Positions 2,638 through 18,943 of a stretch of DNA of 37,720 bases are shown piece by piece. The notes under the pieces were generated by a model, which saw only the letters and a list, made by a program, of their open reading frames with translations, searched no databases and was not told the DNA's origin. The translations under genes and the position numbers were made by a program. This stretch comes from Chloroflexota bacterium (GTDB lineage Bacteria; Chloroflexota; Anaerolineae; Anaerolineales; UBA4823): contig JBBIPD010000002.1 in assembly GCA_037443025.1 (NCBI GenBank), positions 1-37,720 on the forward strand, read 5' to 3'. The first letter of the stretch is position 1. The number at the start of each line of letters is the position of its first letter.

Positions 2638-4095
2638 TCATTGATTCTGTCGCTCTTTTAACTGGCGCGTCAGCTCTCTCTGCACGACCTGGGGGTTTGC
2701 CTGCCCTTTGGCAGCGCGCATCACCTGACCAAACAGCCAGCCAGCCACGCTCTCTTTACCACCCAGGTAAGATTGCACCTGGGCGGGATGCTCGTCCAGC
2801 ACCCGACGCACCAGCCCGGCGATGAGGTCTGCATCCGAAACCTGGCGCAAACCGCGCTCCGCGACGATCTCCTGCGCCTTCCTGCCGCTCTGGTACATCT
2901 CCGCCAGCACCGCCTTGGCGGTGGTCTGGTTAATCTCGCCCGCGGCGACCATCTCAAGCAACCCTGTCAGTTCTTTGGGATGGATGCGCGGCGTCTCGAG
3001 ATCGTCGCCAGCCTGGTTGAGCAGGCTGAACAACTCGCCAGTGATCCAGTTGGCTGCCATCTTGGGAGACACCCCCGAGGCGGCAACGACCGCCTCAAAG
3101 TAATCCGCCACAGACCGTTCCGCAACCAGCACTTCGGCGTCGTAGGCGCTCAAGCCATACATCTGGCGGAAGCGGTGATATTTCGCCCCGGGTAGTTCCG
3201 GCAGGGCGGAGTGCACCTGCTCCACCCATTCCTGGCTCACGACCAGCGGCGGCAGGTCTGGCTCCGGGAAATAGCGGTAGTCGTGGGCTTCTTCTTTGGA
3301 GCGTTGGGGCGCAGTCATCTCGCGGGCGTCATCCCAGCCCATCGTCTCCTGCGCCACCGGCAACCCCTGGCGCAATAGCTGGCTCTGGCGTCGAATCTCG
3401 TAGGCGACCGAACGCTCCAGAGAGCGGAAGCTGTTCAGGTTCTTGATTTCGGTCCGGGTGCCGAATTCGTGGCTGCCCAGTGGACGCACCGAGACGTTTG
3501 GTTCGATTCGCATCACACCCTTCTGCATATCCCCAGAATTGACCCCCAGGTAGCGCAAGATGCTGCGCAAAGCGCTGGCATAGGCGCGCACATCCTCGGC
3601 GCTATGCAGGTCTGGCTCAGAGACTATCTCCAGAAGAGGCACGCCCGCCCGGTTTAAATCAATCAACGAGTACGCCTCGCCCCCCTGGCTGACATGGGTG
3701 AGCTTGCCGGTGTCCTCCTCGAGGTGAACCCGGCGGATACGCACCGTGCGCTCCCCTTCGGAGGTCAAGATGCTCAACCGCCCGTGACGCGCCAGGGGCT
3801 GCTCATATTGAGATATCTGATACCCTTTGGGTAAATCCGGATAAAAGTAGTTCTTGCGGGCGAAGACGCTCACCGGATTAATCTCGCATTCCAACGCCAG
3901 CGCCACACGCAGGGCATATTCCACCGCCCGGCGGTTGACCACCGGCAGCGCGCCCGGCATCCCTGCGCACACCGGACAGACGGCGATGTTCGGTTTTGCC
4001 ACGGTCGAATCCACCACCGGGCAGGGACAGAACATCTTGGAGCGGGTCGCCAGCTCGGCGTGGACCTCCAGACCGATGACGGCTTCAAATTCCAT
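2638..4095 (-). CDS. gatB: Asp-tRNA(Asn)/Glu-tRNA(Gln) amidotransferase subunit B
   Basis: 485 aa. Hallmark N-terminus [15 protein letters not shown]...KMFC and a C-terminal GatB/YqeY-like tail. No gatA or gatC adjacent. Confidence 0.93.
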
Positions 4096-9974: not shown

Positions 9975-12476
9975 TCAGGCTGCCGCCAACGCTTCGGTGG
10001 GCGGGGAAGACTGCTCTTCGCCGCGGCGCAGTGTGATGGCGCCGTCCACCACATCCACGATGATAACATCGCCGTCCTCGAACTCTCCGCCCAGCATGGC
10101 GTCGGAGAGCGGGTCTTCGACGGTCTGCTGGATAACCCGGCGCAAGGGGCGGGCGCCCATCTCCGGGTCGTACCCCATGTCTGCCAGCATTTCCAGCGCA
10201 GCAGGGGTGGCGGTCAGGGTGATGGCGTGGTCCTCCAGACGTCGCGCCACCTTATCCAGCTCAATCTGGACGATCTTCTGGATGTCGCTCTTGCTCAAAG
10301 AGCGGAAGACGATGACCGAATCCAGGCGGTTGATAAACTCGGGGCGGAAGACACGCTTGAGCGAGTCGAGCAGTTTCTTGCGCATGTCTTCATACGCCAG
10401 GCGTTCTTCCACCTCTTCGTCCTTCTTCAGGGCAAAACCGATGGATGTCTGGCGCTTGATCATATCTGCGCCCACGTTAGAGGTCATAACGATGATGGCG
10501 TTGCGGAAATCCACCTTGCGCCCGCGGGCATCCGAGAGGTGACCTTCTTCCATAATTTGCAAGAGCATATTGTGCGCTTCCGGGTGGGCTTTCTCAATCT
10601 CGTCAAAGACGACGATAGAGTAAGGGCGGCGGCGCAGCGCCTCGGTGAGCTGCCCGGCTTCTTCATAGCCAACATACCCCGGCGGGGCGCCGACCAGGCG
10701 GCTGACAGTATGGCGTTCCATGAACTCGGACATATCGAGCTGAATCAGGGCGTCTTCGCTGCCAAAGAGGAAGCGCGCCATGGCTTTGGTCAGCTCGGTC
10801 TTGCCGACGCCGGTGGGTCCGAGGAAGATGAAGGAGCCGATAGGGCGGCGGGGGTCTTTGAGACCGGCGCGCGCCCGGCGCACTGCCTTGGAAATCGCCT
10901 GGATGGCTTCTTCCTGACCGATGATATACTTGCGCAGTTCATCCTCCATCTGGAGCAGGCGCTGCGACTCCTCCTGGGCGATTTGCATGACCGGCACACC
11001 GGTCCACATCGAGACCACCTCGGCGATATCTTCAGCCGAGACCACCGGGCTGTTTGCCCTGTCCCAGCCGGTGCGCAGGCGCTCGAGCTGGCGCTCCAAA
11101 GCCTCCTGGCGCTCGAGGAAGTCCTGGGCGTCATCGTAACGGTTATCTTCCAGGGCAAGCTCGTGATTGGCGCGCACCTCGCGCAACTGCCGCATCAACT
11201 CTTTGGCGGTCTTGGCGGCGTCGCTCTTGTACATGCGCACCCGAGACGACGATTCATCAATCAGGTCAATCGCCTTATCGGGCAAGAAGCGTTCGGTGAC
11301 ATAACGGGCGGAGAGGTGCACCGCAGCGTCGAGGGCTTCGTCCGAGATGGTCAGACGGTGGTGCTCCTCATAGGCGCTGCGAATGCCGCGCAGGATCTCG
11401 ATGGCTTCCTCTTCGGTCGGCTCTTCGACCATGATTGGTTGAAAACGGCGTTCCAGGGCGGCGTCGCTTTCGATGTGCTTGCGGTATTCGTCCAGGGTGG
11501 TGGCGCCAATCACCTGCAGCTCGCCCCGCGAGAGGGCGGGCTTGAGGATGTTGGCGGCATCCACCGACGAACCGGCGGCTCCTGCCCCCACCAGCATGTG
11601 GACTTCGTCAATGAAGAGGATGGCGCCAGAGGCTTTGAGTTCATCAATGACCCGCTTAAGGCGTTCCTCGAACTGACCGCGATACATCGTTCCGGCGACC
11701 AGGGAACCCACGTCGAGTTGCAAGACGCGCTTGCCCAACAAAGGCGCGGGGACATCAGCGTCCACAATCCGTTGAGCCAAGCCTTCGACGATGGCGGTCT
11801 TGCCCACGCCTGGTTCGCCAATCAGGGCGGGGTTATTTTTGGTGCGCCGGGCTAATATCTGGATGACCCGCTCGATTTCCATCTGTCGCCCGATCACCGG
11901 GTCGAGCTTACCCTCCTCTGCCAGCGAGGTCAGGTCGGTGGCAAGCTGATCCACCATGGGCGTCTTGGCTTTCTGCTGCTCCTGGCGAGAGGTTTTCTGT
12001 TCAGTCGAGGCGGCGGTGCTGGTGCGCCTGGAAGCGCTGCTCTCCTGCAAAACCCGCCGGGTCTGGCGGCGAATCTGTTCGGGGGTGACCCCCATCTTGC
12101 GCAACACATCTAACGCCACGCCCTCGCCATGGCGAACCAATCCTAACAAAAGGTGTTCCGTACCGATATAATGATGCCCCAATCTGCGGGCTTCTTCAAC
12201 TGCGTATTCCAATACCTGTTGGGTGCCCGGCGAGAGGTCGAGCTTGCCTCCCCGGTATTGTCCCGTCCCGGTCATGCGCTCGACCATTTCCTGGACGCGC
12301 TCAACTTCCAACCCAAGCTCGCGCAACACGCGCCCGGCAACGCCTCCCTCCTCGCGAATCAAGCCGAGGAGCAGGTGTTCCGTGCCGATGTAGTTGTGAC
12401 GCATGCGTTCAGCTTCCTGATGAGCCAGGCTCAGCACCCTGCGCGCCCTCTGCGTAAAACGTTCCATGCCAGCCAA
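9975..12476 (-). CDS. clpC: ATP-dependent Clp protease ATP-binding subunit ClpC (class I AAA+)
   Basis: 833 aa. Duplicated Clp_N repeats ([10 protein letters not shown] twice), two P-loops GEPGVGKT and GPTGVGKT, and a middle coiled-coil. The TTG start at 12476 has AGGAGG 6 nt upstream; an alternative ATG is at 12467 ([12 protein letters not shown]). Confidence 0.93.
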
Positions 12477-12698: not shown

Positions 12699-14075
12699 TC
12701 AATCCGCCTGCTCTTCACCTTCTTCGGCAGGAGGAGATACCTGCTCTTCCTGCTCAGGCGCTTCAACTAACGAAGGCGGCTCTGTCTCGATAGTCGCTTC
12801 AACCGCCGGAGGCTCTTCTTTGCTCTCCATCACCTCTTCAACCACCTCTTCAACCTCTTCCGCCAGTTCCATTTTCCAATCCAGGTCGGAATAGGCGGCG
12901 GAGTCCACTTTGCGCAGACTCAAGCCAATCCGCCGGCGCTCAGGGTCAATCTTGATCACCCGCAGGGTGACCTCATCGCCTTCTTTCACAACCTCTTTAG
13001 GATGATTGATACGGTGCTCGCTCAGCTCGGAGATATGAATCAAGCCCTCCAGGTCATCATCCAGGCGGGCAAACGCCCCAAACTTGGTCAGGTGGGTGAC
13101 CTTTGCCTCGATCAATTGCCCTTCTTTTATATGCTCCACCCGCTTCAACCAGGGGTCGGGCTGCAACTGGCGGATGGAGAGCCCGATTCGCTTGCGTTCC
13201 TGGTCAATGCTGATGACTTTGACCTCAACTTCCTGCCCCACCTTGAGCACCTCGTTGGGGTGCTGAATCCGTTCCCAGGAGATTTCAGAGAGATGCACCA
13301 GCCCATCCGCCCCGTCAATATTGACGAAGGCGCCGAAATCCGCCACGCTGGTCACCCGACCCTTGCGCACATCGCCTTCTTTCAACTCTTCCAGGAGGCG
13401 ATCCTTCAATGTCTCACGGGTCTCTTGCAGAGCGGCGCGTTCGGATAAGATCAGGCGGCGTCGCTCGCGGTCCACCTCGATCACCCGCACCTGGATTGCA
13501 TCCCCCACCATCTTTCCCCAGCGCTGGTCGGGGGTATCGCCCGTGAGGCTGGCGCGCCTCAGCAGGCTGATTTGTGAAGCAGGGACAAACCCGCGTAAAC
13601 GCCCCAAAGGAACCAGCAGCCCCCCCTTGTTAAAGCCGATGATCTTGCTTTCGAACACCTTCGAAGATGCAAGAAGATCTTCGGCTTCCTGCCAATCTTT
13701 CTCCTCCCTGGCTCGCAAGTAGGAGAGGACGACATTGCCGTTGGCGTCTTCGGGGGTGAGCACATAAACCGGAATCTCTGCGCCGACAGAGAACGTAGCT
13801 CGCTCCTCGGCAGGGATTTGCTCGAACTCTCTGCCAGAGATGACGCCCTCAGATTTTGTGCCGACGCTGACCAGGATTTCATTCTCACCGATGGTGGCGA
13901 TGGTGCCAATGCGAATCTCGCCCTGCTTGGGAAAATCCAAACCCAAACCCTCTTCACTCAAGAGGGTTTCCATGGAGGCGTTCTCCTGGTTGGCTTTCGG
14001 TTCGGCTTGCTCACGATCTGCCTGGTTGTATTCGCTTTCCTCCCCCTGACCCTTTAGGACATCATTTTGATCCAT
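12699..14075 (-). CDS. rpsA: 30S ribosomal protein S1 (four S1/OB repeats, acidic C-terminal tail)
   Basis: 458 aa. Four repeated S1 motifs (for example G.V..V..FGAFV......GL.H.SE). Glu-rich tail EEVEEVVEEV...PAEEGEEQAD. Confidence 0.9.
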   Translation of the reverse strand: MDQNDVLKGQGEESEYNQADREQAEPKANQENASMETLLSEEGLGLDFPKQGEIRIGTIATIGENEILVSVGTKSEGVISGREFEQIPAEERATFSVGAEIPVYVLTPEDANGNVVLSYLRAREEKDWQEAEDLLASSKVFESKIIGFNKGGLLVPLGRLRGFVPASQISLLRRASLTGDTPDQRWGKMVGDAIQVRVIEVDRERRRLILSERAALQETRETLKDRLLEELKEGDVRKGRVTSVADFGAFVNIDGADGLVHLSEISWERIQHPNEVLKVGQEVEVKVISIDQERKRIGLSIRQLQPDPWLKRVEHIKEGQLIEAKVTHLTKFGAFARLDDDLEGLIHISELSEHRINHPKEVVKEGDEVTLRVIKIDPERRRIGLSLRKVDSAAYSDLDWKMELAEEVEEVVEEVMESKEEPPAVEATIETEPPSLVEAPEQEEQVSPPAEEGEEQAD

Positions 14076-14175: not shown

Positions 14176-14192
14176 CAAGATTGAGGAGTAAA

Positions 14193-15296
14193 ATGCCGCC
14201 AATTTATCCGTTTACGGCGATTGTTGGTCAGGAACGCATGAAGCGTGCTCTCGTTCTCAATGCGGTGGATCCGCGCATTGGGGGCGTACTGATTCGCGGG
14301 GAACGCGGCACGGCAAAATCAACTGCGGCGCGCGCTCTGGCGGCGTTGTTGCCTCGGGTGGCGGTGGTGAGCGACTGCCGCTTTAGCTGCGATCCAGACC
14401 GCCCCACGACCTGGTGCACCGAATGCCGTGAAAGGGTCGCCAGGGGTGAAAAGCTGCCGGTAGAACTGCGCACCACGCCGTTTGTCAATCTCCCTGTCTC
14501 CGCGACCGAGGATCGGGTGGTTGGTACCTTGGATATCGAGAAGGCGATTCAAAAAGGCGAGCGCCACTTCGAGCCGGGCGTCCTGGCTTCCGCCAACCGG
14601 GGGCTGCTGTATATTGACGAGGTCAACCTGCTGGATGATCACGTGGTGGACCTGCTGCTCGACTCGGCAGCCATGGGAATGAACATCGTCGAACGGGAGG
14701 GGATTTCTTTCTCCCACCCGGCGCGCTTTATCCTGGTAGGCACCATGAACCCTGAAGAGGGCGACCTGCGCCCCCAACTGCTCGACCGCTTTGCCCTCTC
14801 GGTGGAAATCCACGGCATTCGAGACGCCCGGGAGCGGGTCTTGATTATCGAACGCAACCTGGCATACGAAGCCGATCCCGACGCTTTTCGCGAACAATGG
14901 CTCCCCCAAGAAAACGAACTCTCGCGCCAGATTGAGCAAGCGCGCAATCTGATTGACCAGGTCAGATATTCTCGCCGCGATCTGCTTTCCATCGCTGCCC
15001 TGAGCGCCTCTCTCAATGTGGATGGACATCGCGCCGATTTGGTCATCTTAAAAACCGCCCGCGCCCACGCCGCATTTGAAGGACGAGATGCGATTACCGA
15101 TAGGGATATTGCCCTGGCGGCAGAACTGGCTCTGCCGCACCGTATCAAGCGTGGTCCTTTCTACCAGGCTGAAATCTCGATGGAAGATCTGCAGGAACGC
15201 ATCGAGCAATTGCAGGGCGCCACCTCAGCCGCAGGCGAACCGGAGATGGTTCCTGACGAGAGGCAAACCGAGAGTCGCGAAAAAAAAAAGAGGTGA
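14193..15296 (+). CDS. ChlI/BchI-type AAA+ ATPase (Mg-/Co-chelatase I-subunit family)
   Basis: Strong ChlI-like blocks: Walker A GERGTAKST, TEDRVVGTLDIEKAI, EPGVLASANRGLLYIDEVNLLDDHVVDLLLD, REGISFSHPARFILVGTMNPEEGDLRPQLLDRF, LNVDGHRADL. The ATG at 14193 follows GAGGAG; the tracked TTG at 14181 is probably not the start. Confidence 0.9.
   Translation: MPPIYPFTAIVGQERMKRALVLNAVDPRIGGVLIRGERGTAKSTAARALAALLPRVAVVSDCRFSCDPDRPTTWCTECRERVARGEKLPVELRTTPFVNLPVSATEDRVVGTLDIEKAIQKGERHFEPGVLASANRGLLYIDEVNLLDDHVVDLLLDSAAMGMNIVEREGISFSHPARFILVGTMNPEEGDLRPQLLDRFALSVEIHGIRDARERVLIIERNLAYEADPDAFREQWLPQENELSRQIEQARNLIDQVRYSRRDLLSIAALSASLNVDGHRADLVILKTARAHAAFEGRDAITDRDIALAAELALPHRIKRGPFYQAEISMEDLQERIEQLQGATSAAGEPEMVPDERQTESREKKKR
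15280..15290 (+). other. A10 homopolymer containing an in-frame A_AAA_AAG slippery heptamer, 4 nt upstream of the chlI-like stop
   Basis: Zero frame reads GAA AAA AAA AAG AGG TGA. The heptamer A AAA AAG occupies 15284-15290. The -1 frame is open from 15257 and is the vWA ORF frame. Confidence 0.9.
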
Positions 15297-16240
15297 GCCC
15301 AGAGATACGGGAAGAGGTCTCTGAGAAACTGCCCTCCGAGCCATCCGCCCAGAAAGTCTTCGACAGCGGGACAGCCAACTGGTGGGAAGGCGGCGAGAAG
15401 GTCAAAATTGGGCAGCCATTTGTCCCCCGCAAAATTGAAAACCCCTTAGATCGCATCACCCGCCGCCAGGGTGGGCGACGCTCGCACAGCCGCACCGATC
15501 GCAAGCGAGGGCGTTACATCCAGGCGCGCCCCTCTCCCGGCAAGGCTGACGACCTGGCTTTCGATGCCACCCTGCGGGCGGCGGCGCCTTTCCAAAAACA
15601 ACGCAGCGAACAACGCAAGCGAGTGGCATTTGCCATCCGCTCCGACGACTACCAAAAAAAGGTGCGGGTGAAGAAAACCGCCAATCTGGTGCTTTTTGTG
15701 GTTGACGCATCCTGGTCTATGGCGGTTGCGGAACGAATGACAGCCACCAAAGGGGCTATCCTGTCTTTGCTTACCGACGCCTATCAACGCCGAGACCGGG
15801 TAGGCTTGGTGGTATTCCAGAAAGACCGCGCCACATTGGTGCTGACCCCCACCAACTCAATTCAATTAGCGCAGCGCGCCCTGGCAGATATCCCCGTGGG
15901 CGGCAAGACTCCGCTCTCAGCCGGCTTATACCTGGCGCACCAGATCATCCAGAAAGAGCGCATCGTCCACCCGGATGTGATGCCCTTGATTATCCTCCTC
16001 ACCGATGGGGCGGGCAACGTCTCGATGACCAATCTGCCTCCCCAGGAGGAGGCTCACCGGATTGCAGAAAGCATCGCCGAAGATGATATCCGCTGTGTGG
16101 TGATCAACATGGAACACGCTGCTTTCGATCAGGGTCTGGCGCAAAGCCTGGCAGATCATCTGAAGGCGCCGTGTTATACCTTGAGCGAACTGAAAGCCGA
16201 GGCGCTCTATCAACGCGTCCGCCAAGAAATGGCTTCATGA
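15293..16240 (+). CDS. vWA-domain protein equal to the C-terminal half of ChlD/BchD (linker plus MIDAS vWA), lacking its own AAA+ domain
   Basis: ChlD-like blocks GRR...RGRY, DLAFDATLRAAAPFQ, MIDAS VVDASWSM, GGKTPL and LTDGAGN. Only a GTG start overlapping the upstream stop (GTGA), with no spaced SD. No internal Met before the vWA core. Confidence 0.85.
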   Translation: MSPEIREEVSEKLPSEPSAQKVFDSGTANWWEGGEKVKIGQPFVPRKIENPLDRITRRQGGRRSHSRTDRKRGRYIQARPSPGKADDLAFDATLRAAAPFQKQRSEQRKRVAFAIRSDDYQKKVRVKKTANLVLFVVDASWSMAVAERMTATKGAILSLLTDAYQRRDRVGLVVFQKDRATLVLTPTNSIQLAQRALADIPVGGKTPLSAGLYLAHQIIQKERIVHPDVMPLIILLTDGAGNVSMTNLPPQEEAHRIAESIAEDDIRCVVINMEHAAFDQGLAQSLADHLKAPCYTLSELKAEALYQRVRQEMAS

Positions 16241-16241
16241 A

Positions 16242-17405
16242 ATGCCCTCTCCAGCTATCCGCCTGAAAAGCTTTACCGAATCGGTTATCAACCAGATGAA
16301 CCTCCTTGCCGAAGAGCATGGGGCGATCAACCTGGCTTCCGGTTACCCGGATTTTGACCCGCCCGAGGAGCTGCTGAAAGCAGCGGAACAGGCGTTGCGC
16401 TCCGGTTTCAACCAATACGCCATCCCCTGGGGATCACCGCGCCTGCGCCAGGCGCTGGCAAGTAAGCTGGAACGGTTCATGGGGTTAGAGATAGACTCTG
16501 AAGCGCATCTGACGGTGACCTGCGGCGGCACCGAAGCGATGATTGCGGCGATCCTGGCGGTTTGCGACCCCGGCGACCGGGTGATCGTCTTTTCGCCTCG
16601 TTACGAGACCTATGGTCCGGATATGGAACTGGCAGGCGCTCAGCCGATATTTGTCCCCCTTCACCCTCCAGAGTTCAATTTCGACCCAACTGAACTGCGA
16701 CAGGCGTTCCAAAAAGGGGTGAAAGCCCTGGTGTTATGCAACCCATCCAATCCTTGTGGCAAAGTCTTCTCTCTTGATGAACTGAGACTGATTGGCGATC
16801 TTGCCCGAGAATACGACGCCTACCTGATCACCGATGAGGTCTATGAGCACATTGTCTATGAGCCTTATCATCATACTTATCTCGCCAGCCTGCCAGGTCT
16901 GTTTGAACGGGTCATTTCATGCAGCTCGCTCTCCAAGACCTACGCCATCACCGGCTGGCGGCTGGGTTATATCCTCGCCTCGGAGGAGATCACCCGGGCG
17001 GTGCGCAAGATACACGATTATCTGACCCTGGGAGCTGCCGCTCCTCTTCAGGAAGCTGCCGTCACAGCCCTGGGCTTCCCCGATTCTTATTATCATCAAT
17101 TGCAGGTCGAGTACACCCAGCGCCGCGATTTGTTTTTCAGCCTCCTGGATGAAGCGGGGCTGGAATATCTTCGACCACAGGGGGCGTATTTTACTCTGGT
17201 GGATATCTCTCGACTGCCATTCAAGGATGACACTTCCTTCTGCTATTGGCTGGCGGAACAGGTTGGGGTCGCCGGTGTGCCCGGTTCATATTTTTTCAAT
17301 GAGCCTATTCAACACTATGTGCGCCTGAACTTTGCCAAGAGCCTCCCCACGCTGACCGAGGCGGGGCTGCGCCTGGGTAAACTTCATCAAAAACTTCCGC
17401 GTTAG
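16242..17405 (+). CDS. class-I PLP aminotransferase (YbdL/kynurenine-methionine aminotransferase-like)
   Basis: 387 aa. N-terminus INLASGYPDF, then NPSNPCGK, and PLP-lysine motif SLSKTYAITGWRLGY. Starts 1 nt after the vWA stop. Confidence 0.88.
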   Translation: MPSPAIRLKSFTESVINQMNLLAEEHGAINLASGYPDFDPPEELLKAAEQALRSGFNQYAIPWGSPRLRQALASKLERFMGLEIDSEAHLTVTCGGTEAMIAAILAVCDPGDRVIVFSPRYETYGPDMELAGAQPIFVPLHPPEFNFDPTELRQAFQKGVKALVLCNPSNPCGKVFSLDELRLIGDLAREYDAYLITDEVYEHIVYEPYHHTYLASLPGLFERVISCSSLSKTYAITGWRLGYILASEEITRAVRKIHDYLTLGAAAPLQEAAVTALGFPDSYYHQLQVEYTQRRDLFFSLLDEAGLEYLRPQGAYFTLVDISRLPFKDDTSFCYWLAEQVGVAGVPGSYFFNEPIQHYVRLNFAKSLPTLTEAGLRLGKLHQKLPR

Positions 17406-17413
17406 ACCCAACA

Positions 17414-18943
17414 ATGCCTCGCTTGCTCGTCATCCCCCTGATTTTCTGCCTGATGACGACAGGGCTGGTTTCCTGCGCCACAGGCTGGGGTGAAACCCAG
17501 ATAGCAAATCAAGAAAACCCGAGCAAGACGCAACCCATCCTGGCAACTCCGTCTCCCGCGCCGACATTGACTCAACCAACACAGCCGAAGACTCCCCCGC
17601 CGGCGTTGGATGCTACCCCTCCCCCAACCGAGAACGAGAGCCTGCCCATCCCGCTCTACCAGCTCACAGCAGCGTTGAATTATAACCAGCACTACCTCGC
17701 AGTTGACGAAAAGATCCGCTACACCAACCGTCAAGCCGAGCCGTTGACCGACCTGCGCCTGATGGTTGACCCCCTGTATTATCCGGGCGTATTCAACCTC
17801 AAGAGCATGTATTGGGGAGACAACCAGCCCGTGGCTGATTATCAAATCGAACCCGGGCAAATCTCGATTAACTTGCCTCAACCATTGCCGCCAGGGGAAT
17901 ATCTCGAACTTTCTCTCAATTACGAATTATTCATGCCCTCTCCCCAACCCTCAGTCGAAGTGCGCCCCATTCCCTTTGGATACACGGCGCGTCAGATAAA
18001 CTTTGTGGACTGGTATCCCTTTATTCCGCCCTATATTCCCGGCACAGGCTGGCTGGCGCACCGGGCGGGTTTCTTTGGCGAACATCTGGTTTATGAAATC
18101 GCCGACTTTGAGGTCAATATCCACCTGAGCGAAGCCACGCCAGAGGTCATTCTGGCAGCCAGCGCTCCCGCCCTTCGAGATGGAGAGTGGTATCGCTACC
18201 AACACAAAGCGGCGCGCAATTTTGCCTGGTCTGCCAGCCCCGATTACCAGGTGTACACCGCCAAAGTAGGGGAGACAACAATCCAAAGCTACACCTTTCC
18301 CTATCACGCAGCCGCCGGACAGGCAGCTTTGGAGACAACCGCCGAAGCGCTAACCCTCTTCAGTGATTTGTATGGCGCTTATCCCAGATCGCTTCTCTCG
18401 GTCGTGGAAGCCGATTTTCTCGACGGTATGGAATATGATGGTCTGTATTTTTTAAGCAACGGTTTTTACAACCTTTACCAGGGCACTCCAGGAGAATACC
18501 TGGCGGCTATCGCCGCCCATGAGACAGCTCACCAATGGTTCTACGCCCTTGTGGCTAACGATCAGGCGCTTGAGCCCTGGTTGGATGAGGCGCTTTGCAC
18601 TTATCATGAGCACATCTACTACGAAAAACTCCATCCCGAAGCGTTAGATTGGTGGTGGACATATCGCGTTAATTATTACCAGCCTCGCGGCTGGGTGGAT
18701 GGAAGCATCTACAACCCCGAGGGATATCGCGCTTATCGGGATGCGGTCTATCTGAACGGAGCCAGATTTCTGGAAGAACTGCGCTCTGAGATTGGGGATA
18801 ATACTTTCTTTGCCTTCCTATCCGATTATGTCAACCAGACCAAAGGACAAATTGCGACGGCTGAGATATTTTTTGATATTCTCAACCAACACACCACGGT
18901 AGATTTATCTGAATTGGTAGGAACGTATTTTGAGTCCCGTTGA
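17414..18943 (+). CDS. lipoprotein M1-family (gluzincin) metallopeptidase
   Basis: HETAH-X18-E zinc motif (HETAHQWFYALVANDQALEPWLDE). Lipobox LVSC in the signal peptide MPRLLVIPLIFCLMTTGLVSC, followed by a Pro/Thr-rich tether. Starts 8 nt after the aminotransferase stop. Confidence 0.8.
   Translation: MPRLLVIPLIFCLMTTGLVSCATGWGETQIANQENPSKTQPILATPSPAPTLTQPTQPKTPPPALDATPPPTENESLPIPLYQLTAALNYNQHYLAVDEKIRYTNRQAEPLTDLRLMVDPLYYPGVFNLKSMYWGDNQPVADYQIEPGQISINLPQPLPPGEYLELSLNYELFMPSPQPSVEVRPIPFGYTARQINFVDWYPFIPPYIPGTGWLAHRAGFFGEHLVYEIADFEVNIHLSEATPEVILAASAPALRDGEWYRYQHKAARNFAWSASPDYQVYTAKVGETTIQSYTFPYHAAAGQAALETTAEALTLFSDLYGAYPRSLLSVVEADFLDGMEYDGLYFLSNGFYNLYQGTPGEYLAAIAAHETAHQWFYALVANDQALEPWLDEALCTYHEHIYYEKLHPEALDWWWTYRVNYYQPRGWVDGSIYNPEGYRAYRDAVYLNGARFLEELRSEIGDNTFFAFLSDYVNQTKGQIATAEIFFDILNQHTTVDLSELVGTYFESR

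Follow-up and report, generated by a model that had tools for sequence, protein, structure and literature searches.

A conserved poly-A run at the ChlI/ChlD junction of an Anaerolineales chelatase locus, very probably a member of the fs-chlD family

The dnaX gene of Escherichia coli undergoes −1 PRF at the heptamer A_AAA_AAG, and that of Thermus thermophilus is subject to transcriptional slippage at an A9 run. In dnaX gamma/tau, as is proposed for the locus described here, a single gene with an A-rich slippery site gives two products in a fixed ratio, one of them truncated, that share an AAA+ N-terminal module. Lineages of the dnaX family vary, as do those with the chelatase locus, as to whether the long or the short product lies in the zero frame; apart from the AAA+ fold, the dnaX proteins are unrelated to the chelatase products.

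The three-gene magnesium chelatase (ChlI/ChlD/ChlH) and the CobN/ChlID cobaltochelatase have the domain content of the present locus (ChlI plus ChlD), but their I and D subunits are encoded by separate paralogous genes, whereas here one AAA+ coding sequence is shared. A cluster of −1 frameshifts in Mg chelatase genes was described by Antonov et al. in 2013 (PMC3711429), and in E. coli reporters homologous poly-A sites from other genera gave shifted yields of 63% (A11), 40% (A9) and 10% (A7) (PMC3711429). The review by Atkins in 2016 devotes a section to the chelatase A_AAA_AAR site and reports a strong stem-loop in Pseudomonas (PMC5009743). Kuznetsov et al. (2022) found fs-chlD in Anaerolinea, Longilinea, Levilinea, Ornatilinea and Brevefilum, reported Anaerolineaceae with fs-chlD that are without cobN/chlH, and called a downstream stimulatory RNA structure usual for fs-chlD (PMC9227772). 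The 2020 paper by Antonov (MBE, doi 10.1093/molbev/msaa081) on the magnesium-chelatase programmed frameshift is cited through the accounts given in PMC9227772 and PMC10732093. Chelatase AAA+/vWA recoding has therefore been described since 2013, this bacterial group included, and the novelty that an earlier note on this DNA had seen in it is forestalled by the reporter tests of 2013 (PMC3711429), the review of 2016 (PMC5009743) and the Anaerolineaceae survey of 2022 (PMC9227772). Genes of the fs-chlD family consist of a ChlI-like ORF overlapped by an ORF for the C-terminal half of ChlD, mostly in the −1 frame (+1 is also reported), with an A-rich slippery site (A_AAA_AAR or poly-A) under purifying selection in the overlap; they are publicly annotated as two adjacent genes, and fused homologues are known. 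The present locus resembles them in each of these respects.

The locus lies in a stretch of 37,720 nt (the window). A ChlI/BchI-like AAA+ ORF, the short product of standard decoding, occupies positions 14181–15296 of the forward strand; translation from its first start (TTG 14181) gives 371 aa and from the start in the public gene call (ATG 14193) 367 aa. Its 3′ end reads GAA (15279) AAA AAA AAG AGG TGA, and the short product terminates in SREKKKR. The A10 run, which is the proposed recoding site, spans 15280–15289 on the same strand and provides two heptamers that are in phase, A_AAA_AAA and A_AAA_AAG, the latter at 15284–15290 in X_XXY_YYZ phase; the zero-frame TGA (15294–15296, forward strand) that ends the short product follows 4 nt past the run. 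The −1 frame opens at 15257, and its ORF (15257–16240, forward strand) encodes an acidic, proline-containing linker, an AAPxQ block and a vWA/MIDAS domain, which together correspond to the C-terminal half of ChlD. It overlaps the ChlI-like ORF by 40 nt. The vWA ORF has a GTG start at 15293, which overlaps the TGA as GTGA, and its earliest ATG falls within the MIDAS block DASWSM. After a −1 shift, the read-through would be ...SREKKKEVSPEIREEV... The tract, the phasing of A_AAA_AAG, the overlapping vWA ORF with its coordinates and the lack of a Met ahead of the vWA core were all as the earlier note had described them. The A10 run is the only homopolymer of 8 nt or more on either strand of the window (iid expectation 0.005), and the codon pair AAA-AAA is used once in its 23 ORFs.

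The ChlI-like ORF matched Pfam Mg_chelatase and AAA_lid_2, NCBIfam TIGR02030 BchI-ChlI (438 bits) and, in the PDB, ChlI (8osf) and BchI (1g8p) with E of ∼1e-100; a Walker A motif (GERGTAKST) and a Walker B motif (LLYIDE) were read from its translation. The −1 frame ORF matched Pfam VWA_2/VWA and the vWA domain of BchD (PDB 2x31_A). The locus also matches BchD-ChlD, and at the level of sequence its family assignment is unambiguous. Both halves were further compared with TIGR02442, the single-chain chelatase family (cut-off 779.45 bits). The ChlI-like half covered profile positions 1–347 and the vWA half positions 351–640, with separate scores of 516 and 271 bits that are both under the cut-off, whereas the −1 fusion scored 794.5 bits in a single stretch over positions 1–640 and passed it. 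More than 120 single-ORF homologues of 680–690 aa (66–84% identity) cover 97–100% of the fusion, and the fused polypeptide is thus a natural product.

Orthologous loci with both halves were collected from the Anaerolineales. The sample of 153 comprised 79 GTDB species and 74 metagenome loci, with MAGs of Anaerolinea, Longilinea and Levilinea among them (L042, L048, L059 and L076). An uninterrupted run of A7–A12 was present at the homologous junction in all 153, while the positions flanking it were unconserved (<0.7 bit of information per position). The run was A9 or A10 in 150 of the 153, which differs from the A7 sites found elsewhere in fs-chlD. When the window is added, giving 154 sequences, the vWA half is in the −1 frame relative to the ChlI-like half in 133, in the +1 frame in 20 and in frame in one. 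The GTDB species loci with the −1 relation carried A10 (33, the window counted in), A9 (35) or A8 (1), and the remaining ones were A9/+1 (4), A10/+1 (6) and A11/in-frame (1); the metagenome loci were A10/−1 (53), A9/−1 (9) and A10/+1 (9), with odd lengths in three. The A10/+1 loci include a reproducible clade of ∼15. In the genome set, 60 of the 69 −1 loci have their zero-frame stop 1–7 nt past the end of the run, and in four loci (L037, L053, L056 and L078) the −1 frame opens just 13 nt ahead of the stop, within the run itself. The run was also retained in eight of nine in-frame fused genes sampled at the DNA level, and at least KK was kept in 113 of 114 at the protein level; in these in-frame relatives the frame is regained through a base adjoining the run, A9–A10 being kept. 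The feature at the chelatase junction is real and strongly conserved: the orthologue comparison bore out the recurrence of the A-run and of the out-of-frame relation, and found fused relatives as well. The weight that had been placed on a dnaX-type heptamer is not supported, however, since the conserved trait is the length of the run (A9–A10, in any codon phase), which is shared by the +1 and in-frame relatives. A9 runs were found in codon phases 1, 2 and 3, and the last base of the heptamer varies among orthologues.

Stimulatory elements were sought on both sides of the run. The arms of the hairpin proposed earlier (CAGAGA 15300–15305 and TCTCTG 15318–15323, forward strand) are present, but a role for it (15300–15323) as a stimulator is unsupported: the window sequence folds at −11.1 kcal/mol, compared with −10.5 ± 2.4 kcal/mol for shuffled sequences (z = −0.25), and 67 of 200 shuffles were at least as stable. 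Over the 50 nt past the run in 80 loci the mean z was −0.25, compared with 0.00 in internal control windows, which gives no structure signal, and RNAalifold found zero consensus pairs downstream of the run in 20 orthologues. A downstream stimulatory hairpin was rejected on these three grounds. Profiled position by position, the 30 nt 5′ of the run contained no conserved motif that could act as an SD-like stimulator; in the window the closest upstream GAGG ends 20 nt ahead of the heptamer. The locus thus has the in-phase A_AAA_AAG of dnaX-type −1 PRF, without the SD 10–14 nt upstream or the stem-loop 5–8 nt downstream. E. coli dnaX requires both of these elements, neither of which is present or conserved here, and its shift leads to the short product; T. 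thermophilus dnaX, with a long run and no stimulators, is the nearer mechanistic analogue. The lineage also differs from Pseudomonas, with its strong stem-loop (PMC5009743), in having no detectable downstream structure. Such a structure is an accessory and not a defining feature of fs-chlD, since at the validated poly-A sites the yield rose with the length of the run. The domain order, the full-length fusion, the conserved A-rich site and the conserved frame relation are all found here. The locus is very probably an ordinary member of the described fs-chlD family of chelatase-type AAA+/vWA genes, recoded at the A-run.

Standard decoding would then give a ChlI-like AAA+ ATPase of ∼40 kDa, halting 4 nt past the A10 run, while in some rounds of decoding the frame would slip to −1 within the run and yield a ChlD-like protein of ∼686 aa with the same AAA+ module followed by the acidic linker and the vWA/MIDAS domain. 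RNA polymerase may insert one extra A, tRNA-Lys may slip by −1 on A_AAA_AAA/G, or both may occur; the transcriptional and ribosomal routes would produce identical proteins. Slippage is expected to scale with the length of the A-run and to need no auxiliary signals. That the shift takes place in this organism is suggested by analogy with homologous poly-A sites, for which reporter tests in E. coli have been published. The comparison of sequences supports the idea that one locus may supply both a free I-type ATPase and an I–D fusion by slippage: the run recurs in 153 loci, as does the out-of-frame relation, the vWA half has neither a start nor an SD that is conserved among them, and only the fusion reaches the single-chain chelatase cut-off.

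Were the locus two ordinary genes, the vWA protein would be made by termination–reinitiation at the GTGA and the A-run would be a mere C-terminal lysine tail. The GTG at 15293 overlapping the TGA speaks for this, as do a GTG at +3 from the run end in L002 and L013 and at +4 to +6 in L008, L014, L019 and L022, and in this organism the GTGA may permit a degree of coupled re-initiation. Yet from the run to a conserved WW motif ∼90 nt downstream, the vWA frame of 40 of 77 loci contains no ATG, GTG or TTG, and a start with an SD-like sequence was found in only five of the 77. On this survey an independent start for the vWA half, being unconserved, was rejected. The vWA frame is free of stops over the 15 codons past the run in 80 of 80 loci, while the other two frames contain stops in 79 and 71. 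A lysine tail should mix AAA with AAG (148:179 among the Lys codons of the window), yet the run is unbroken in every orthologue; the lone vWA half, moreover, fails the TIGR02442 cut-off that the fusion passes, and many relatives have one fused ORF. Two ordinary genes are therefore very unlikely, and simple GTGA re-initiation, which the earlier note had listed as an alternative, is disfavoured by the roughly half of the orthologues that have no possible vWA start codon.

Two further explanations place the change in the DNA or in its reading. Homopolymers are error-prone, unusual lengths, A12 and A11 for instance, are occasionally seen, and the four A9/+1 loci all come from MAGs of one project (MFD) and could be under-called A10, all of which would suit a plain fused chlD with a true A11 that has been misread or inactivated by mutation to A10. 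An exact-protein look-up with the TTG-start ChlI-like protein and with the 315-aa vWA ORF gave no match for either, but the 367-aa ATG-start protein led to an independent Logan assembly, 99.2% identical with 40 SNPs over 5104 nt, in which the A10 is unchanged; the A10 is hence not a sequencing error, contrary to the homopolymer error that had been offered as an alternative. The A10/−1 arrangement is shared with 86 other loci from many projects, both halves are intact and conserved among orthologues (70–90% amino-acid identity), and 152 of 153 loci are out of frame, which makes this the normal state. The probability of an artefact or pseudogene is practically negligible. Slipped-strand mispairing in replication might instead switch subpopulations between split and fused states, with no recoding of a single template. 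Near relatives do differ in run length or through a single-nucleotide indel there, as this would produce: L090 has A12 and L091 A10, L134 has A11 within the A10/+1 clade, and L017 and L082 are in frame while L021 is split. Such a switch should, however, often be sampled in its ON state, whereas among consensus assemblies of close relatives the in-frame length was met once in 153; in-frame relatives fix the frame beside the run instead of by its length; and homologous poly-A cassettes on a clonal E. coli template gave 10–63% shifted protein (PMC3711429). Phase variation at the DNA level is accordingly highly improbable, and recoding at the A-run is retained as the explanation of the locus.

To this is added here that the constant element, an A-run of at least nine, would point to slippage that depends on run length and is probably transcriptional, in preference to a dnaX-type heptamer, because the run is kept both in the +1 clade and in the in-frame fused genes. 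For the A10/+1 clade a plain −1 slip of the ribosome would not work, and the sequence trait expected of transcriptional realignment sites (an A/T homopolymer of ∼8–9 or more, with its length rather than its phase conserved) is present. It is tentatively proposed, as a possibility that falls short of our preferred family assignment, that the Anaerolineales element is a stimulator-free A-run of at least nine that acts as a two-way slippage device, probably at RNA polymerase, and not a −1 heptamer.

Neither a CobN/ChlH large subunit or tetrapyrrole gene nor a cobalamin riboswitch was found in the 37.7-kb window, in which the sole ORF of more than 1000 aa encodes a subtilisin-like peptidase. Across 80 loci, the only commonly syntenic neighbours are the upstream housekeeping genes S1 and ClpC, and the rest vary. 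A conserved operon partner was rejected: of the 80 loci, just eight have the downstream aminotransferase and 21 the M1-peptidase-like gene.

Loci of this kind are routinely called as two genes, a `magnesium chelatase ATPase' and a `VWA domain protein', and should be merged into a single recoded chlD; only the fused form of the protein receives a name from NCBIfam. The site is predicted to set the stoichiometry of two ring-forming AAA+/vWA motor subunits from one mRNA, a principle that is already established. If the two-way reading of the run is true, the −1 (∼87% of loci), +1 and in-frame states would each still yield I-type and D-type products, lineages would toggle among the frame states through 1-nt changes adjoining the run, and the slippage device would serve a chelatase-like I/D motor that seemingly works without a large-subunit partner.

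The ChlI-like AAA+ ORF (ORF1, 14181–15296, + strand, TTG start) ends GAA AAA AAA AAG AGG TGA when read directly from the sequence. This ending holds an A10 run (15280–15289, +) and the heptamer A_AAA_AAG (15284–15290, +) in X_XXY_YYZ phase, with the ORF1 stop 4 nt later. The vWA ORF (ORF2, the ChlD C-terminal half) was listed from GTG 15293 to 16240 (+) in the −1 frame, which is open from 15257 and overlaps ORF1 by 40 nt. The ORF1 ending, the phase of the heptamer and the open −1 frame had been described in the earlier note and were all confirmed by the sequence and the ORF list. A −1 shift at the junction gives ...SREKKKEVSPEIREEV.... An exact look-up with the protein starting at TTG 14181 returned no public match; the alternative start at ATG 14193 (+, 367 aa) corresponds to an exactly matching public gene call. 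The A10 run is not a chance feature of the window. It is the sole homopolymer of at least 8 nt on either strand of these 37.7 kb (57% GC), where 0.005 runs of A10 or longer are expected under an iid model. The codon pair AAA-AAA occurs once across the 23 ORFs of the window, and lysine is encoded by 148 AAA and 179 AAG codons.

ORF1 matched the Pfam families Mg_chelatase and AAA_lid_2, and ORF2 matched VWA_2 and VWA. The halves and the fusion were compared with TIGR02442 (NCBIfam, 'putative cobaltochelatase'), a single-chain model of 641 positions with a cut-off of 779.45. ORF1 covered positions 1–347 (516 bits) and ORF2 positions 351–640 (271 bits), both under the cut-off; the 686-residue −1 fusion aligned unbroken over positions 1–640 with 794.5 bits, over the cut-off, and could also be aligned end to end with the BchD-ChlD model TIGR02031. 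Among solved structures the N-terminal half matched ChlI/BchI (8osf, 6l8d and 1g8p; E about 1e-100) and the C-terminal half the BchD vWA chain of 2x31.

Orthologous loci were collected by using the vWA half to scan a single genome of each GTDB species, which yielded 80 loci, all from Anaerolineales/Chloroflexota MAGs at 70–89% identity; both halves were located by tblastn and were present in 79, every one of which (79/79) carries an A-run at the junction. The run length and frame relation were A10/−1 in 33 loci (the window included), A9/−1 in 35, A8/−1 in one, A9/+1 in four, A10/+1 in six and A11/in frame in one. Another 74 contigs with both halves, sampled independently from metagenomes, gave the same picture (A10/−1, 53; A9/−1, nine; A10/+1, nine; A11/−1, A12/+1 and A7/−1, one each), and over both sets the run is A9 or A10 in 150 of 153 loci. 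The zero-frame stop begins 1–7 nt past the run in 60 of the 69 −1 loci of the genome set. In L037, L053, L056 and L078, GAT AAA makes a TAA in the −1 frame, which therefore opens no earlier than 13 nt ahead of the stop; any shift in these four loci would have to fall inside the run. Over the 15 codons past the run the vWA frame is free of stops in 80/80 loci, and the other two frames contain stops in 79 and 71. The four A9/+1 loci (L003, L019, L035 and L040) all belong to a single project's MAGs (isolate names MFD...) and resemble the common A10/−1 state less one A; they may be homopolymer under-calls and not a biological state.

The earlier note had offered two alternatives to recoding, namely that the vWA half is initiated independently or by coupling, and that the A10 run is a sequencing error. 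A GTG at the same offset as in the window is found in two other loci (L002 and L013), and in a few more a GTG lies some nucleotides further on. However, in a survey of the vWA frame from the run to a WW motif conserved some 90 nt downstream, 40 of 77 loci contain no ATG, GTG or TTG, and a start with an SD-like sequence was found in only five. A miscalled homopolymer is contradicted by the Logan assembly of SRR24079446, which encodes an exactly identical 367-aa short protein and aligns with the window over 5104 nt without gaps and with 40 substitutions, the A10 being identical; moreover, in loci drawn from many projects the out-of-frame state is the rule (152 of 153).

Recoding of this kind was considered new in the earlier note; it had in fact been published in 2013, 2016 and 2022. 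Antonov et al. (2013; PMC3711429) described a −1 frameshift in one cluster of 23 magnesium-chelatase genes, drawn from Pseudomonas, Burkholderia, Delftia, Herpetosiphon, Methanocaldococcus and Methanococcus; these are annotated as two neighbouring genes of ∼1 kb and have fused homologues elsewhere. The same study obtained 63, 40 and 10% of shifted product from A11, A9 and A7 reporter cassettes in E. coli. A 2016 review of recoding (PMC5009743) devotes a section to the question 'Magnesium chelatase: also regulatory?', reporting purifying selection on A_AAA_AAR and, for Pseudomonas, a strong stem-loop downstream. As summarized by Kuznetsov, Milenkin and Antonov (2022; PMC9227772), Antonov (2020; MBE 37:2268) assigned the short product as small subunit and the shifted one as medium subunit. 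The 2022 paper lists frameshifted chlD (fs-chlD) genes bearing the signals typical of frameshifting in Brevefilum fermentans, Anaerolinea thermophila, Ornatilinea, Longilinea and Levilinea, and reports that these Chloroflexi have neither cobN/chlH nor the chlorophyll and B12 pathways (PMC9227772). Our orthologous loci include some from MAGs with the labels Anaerolinea, Longilinea, Levilinea and Leptolinea (L048, L042, L076, L059 and L079), and the window therefore falls in an already described orthologue group.

The fusion could arise by a −1 ribosomal shift on A_AAA_AAA/G, or from an altered mRNA if RNA polymerase inserted one A in the run; both routes would give the identical protein and so are inseparable by sequence alone. 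The earlier note had emphasized a dnaX-type heptamer with a downstream hairpin. The emphasis on the heptamer is not supported; what is conserved is the run length (A9/A10), with A9 runs of the genome set in all three codon phases. The hairpin did not hold up as a functional element: segment 15291–15335 folds at −11.1 kcal mol−1, shuffled versions give −10.5 ± 2.4 (z = −0.25), and 67 of the 200 shuffles fold equally well or better. For the 50 nt past the run the mean z was −0.25 in the 80 loci and 0.00 in 240 control windows, RNAalifold predicted no pairs in 20 loci, and the genome-set flanks (30 nt upstream, 60 nt downstream) carry less than 0.7 bit per position, excepting the base right after the run. 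No conserved stimulator was thus found on either side by flank profile, folding or RNAalifold.

Some loci form a reproducible +1 clade with A10 (GAT AAA AAA AAA AGA CCT AAA CCT CAC...), to which L020, L024–26, L029 and L032 belong, together with most of the nine metagenome loci of the A10/+1 type; the loci listed for it include L128, L129, L138, L139, L141, L147, L148 and L158. One sequence of this clade (L134) has A11 and hence the −1 relation. The short product of the clade has a C-terminal extension of about 16–20 aa. The long product here requires the loss of one A, the gain of two or a +1/−2 shift, which a plain −1 ribosomal shift cannot supply.

A search with the fusion returned more than 120 single-ORF homologues (680–690 aa, 66–84% identity), and 113 of the 114 with a locatable junction have at least KK there. 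An uninterrupted A9–A11 is present in eight of the nine in-frame genes whose DNA was examined (A10 in L082/83; A9 in L084–87, L088/89, L170, L171–173, L174/175 and L177; A11 in L017); the only broken run (GAA AGA AAA ACG, L176) is in a gene picked for this check since its protein lacks KK. Compared with split relatives such as L021, L017 and L082 have one additional base beside the run, and their frame was repaired at the DNA level with the run nonetheless kept. The run is conserved even where the long protein requires no frameshift. Most in-frame genes have a +1-frame stop 1–7 codons past the run, and a transcript lacking one base would yield a ChlI-like short product. The zero-frame product differs among lineages in the dnaX family, and in-frame and split chlD genes are similar in this respect; it is possible, if somewhat doubtful, that the retained run reflects dnaX-like lineage variation.

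A heptamer would be enough for ribosomal frameshifting. Length-dependent slippage on the run is favoured over a dnaX-type site because runs of A9/A10 nevertheless occur in 150/153 loci, because a stimulator is conserved on neither side, because the reproducible clade combines A10 with a +1 relation and because the run persists in genes already in frame.

Among the ten large ORFs scanned in the window, neither a CobN/ChlH-like large subunit nor a tetrapyrrole-pathway gene was recognized; the sole ORF exceeding 1000 aa encodes a subtilisin-like peptidase. No cobalamin riboswitch was found in the window, the only Rfam match being a tRNA-Leu. A class I/II aminotransferase (16242–17405) starts 2 nt past the vWA stop and is followed by a 509-aa HExxH protein (17414–18943), the homologous gene of which in L082 is a Peptidase_M1. 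Of the 80 orthologous loci, only 8 have the aminotransferase next to the chelatase-like gene and 21 have the M1-like gene, so neither is a conserved partner. The S1 (12699–14075, −), ClpC-like (9975–12476, −) and GatB (2638–4095, −) genes are housekeeping neighbours, and synteny with the upstream S1 and ClpC genes is common in orthologous loci.

The recoding interpretation is well supported at this locus by comparative genomics, the run being present in all loci with two halves, and by experiments that others have published on homologous sites. It belongs as an ordinary case to a recoded gene family that is already known, and its remaining value lies in the question of how the slippage occurs and in the fact that in-frame relatives keep the run.
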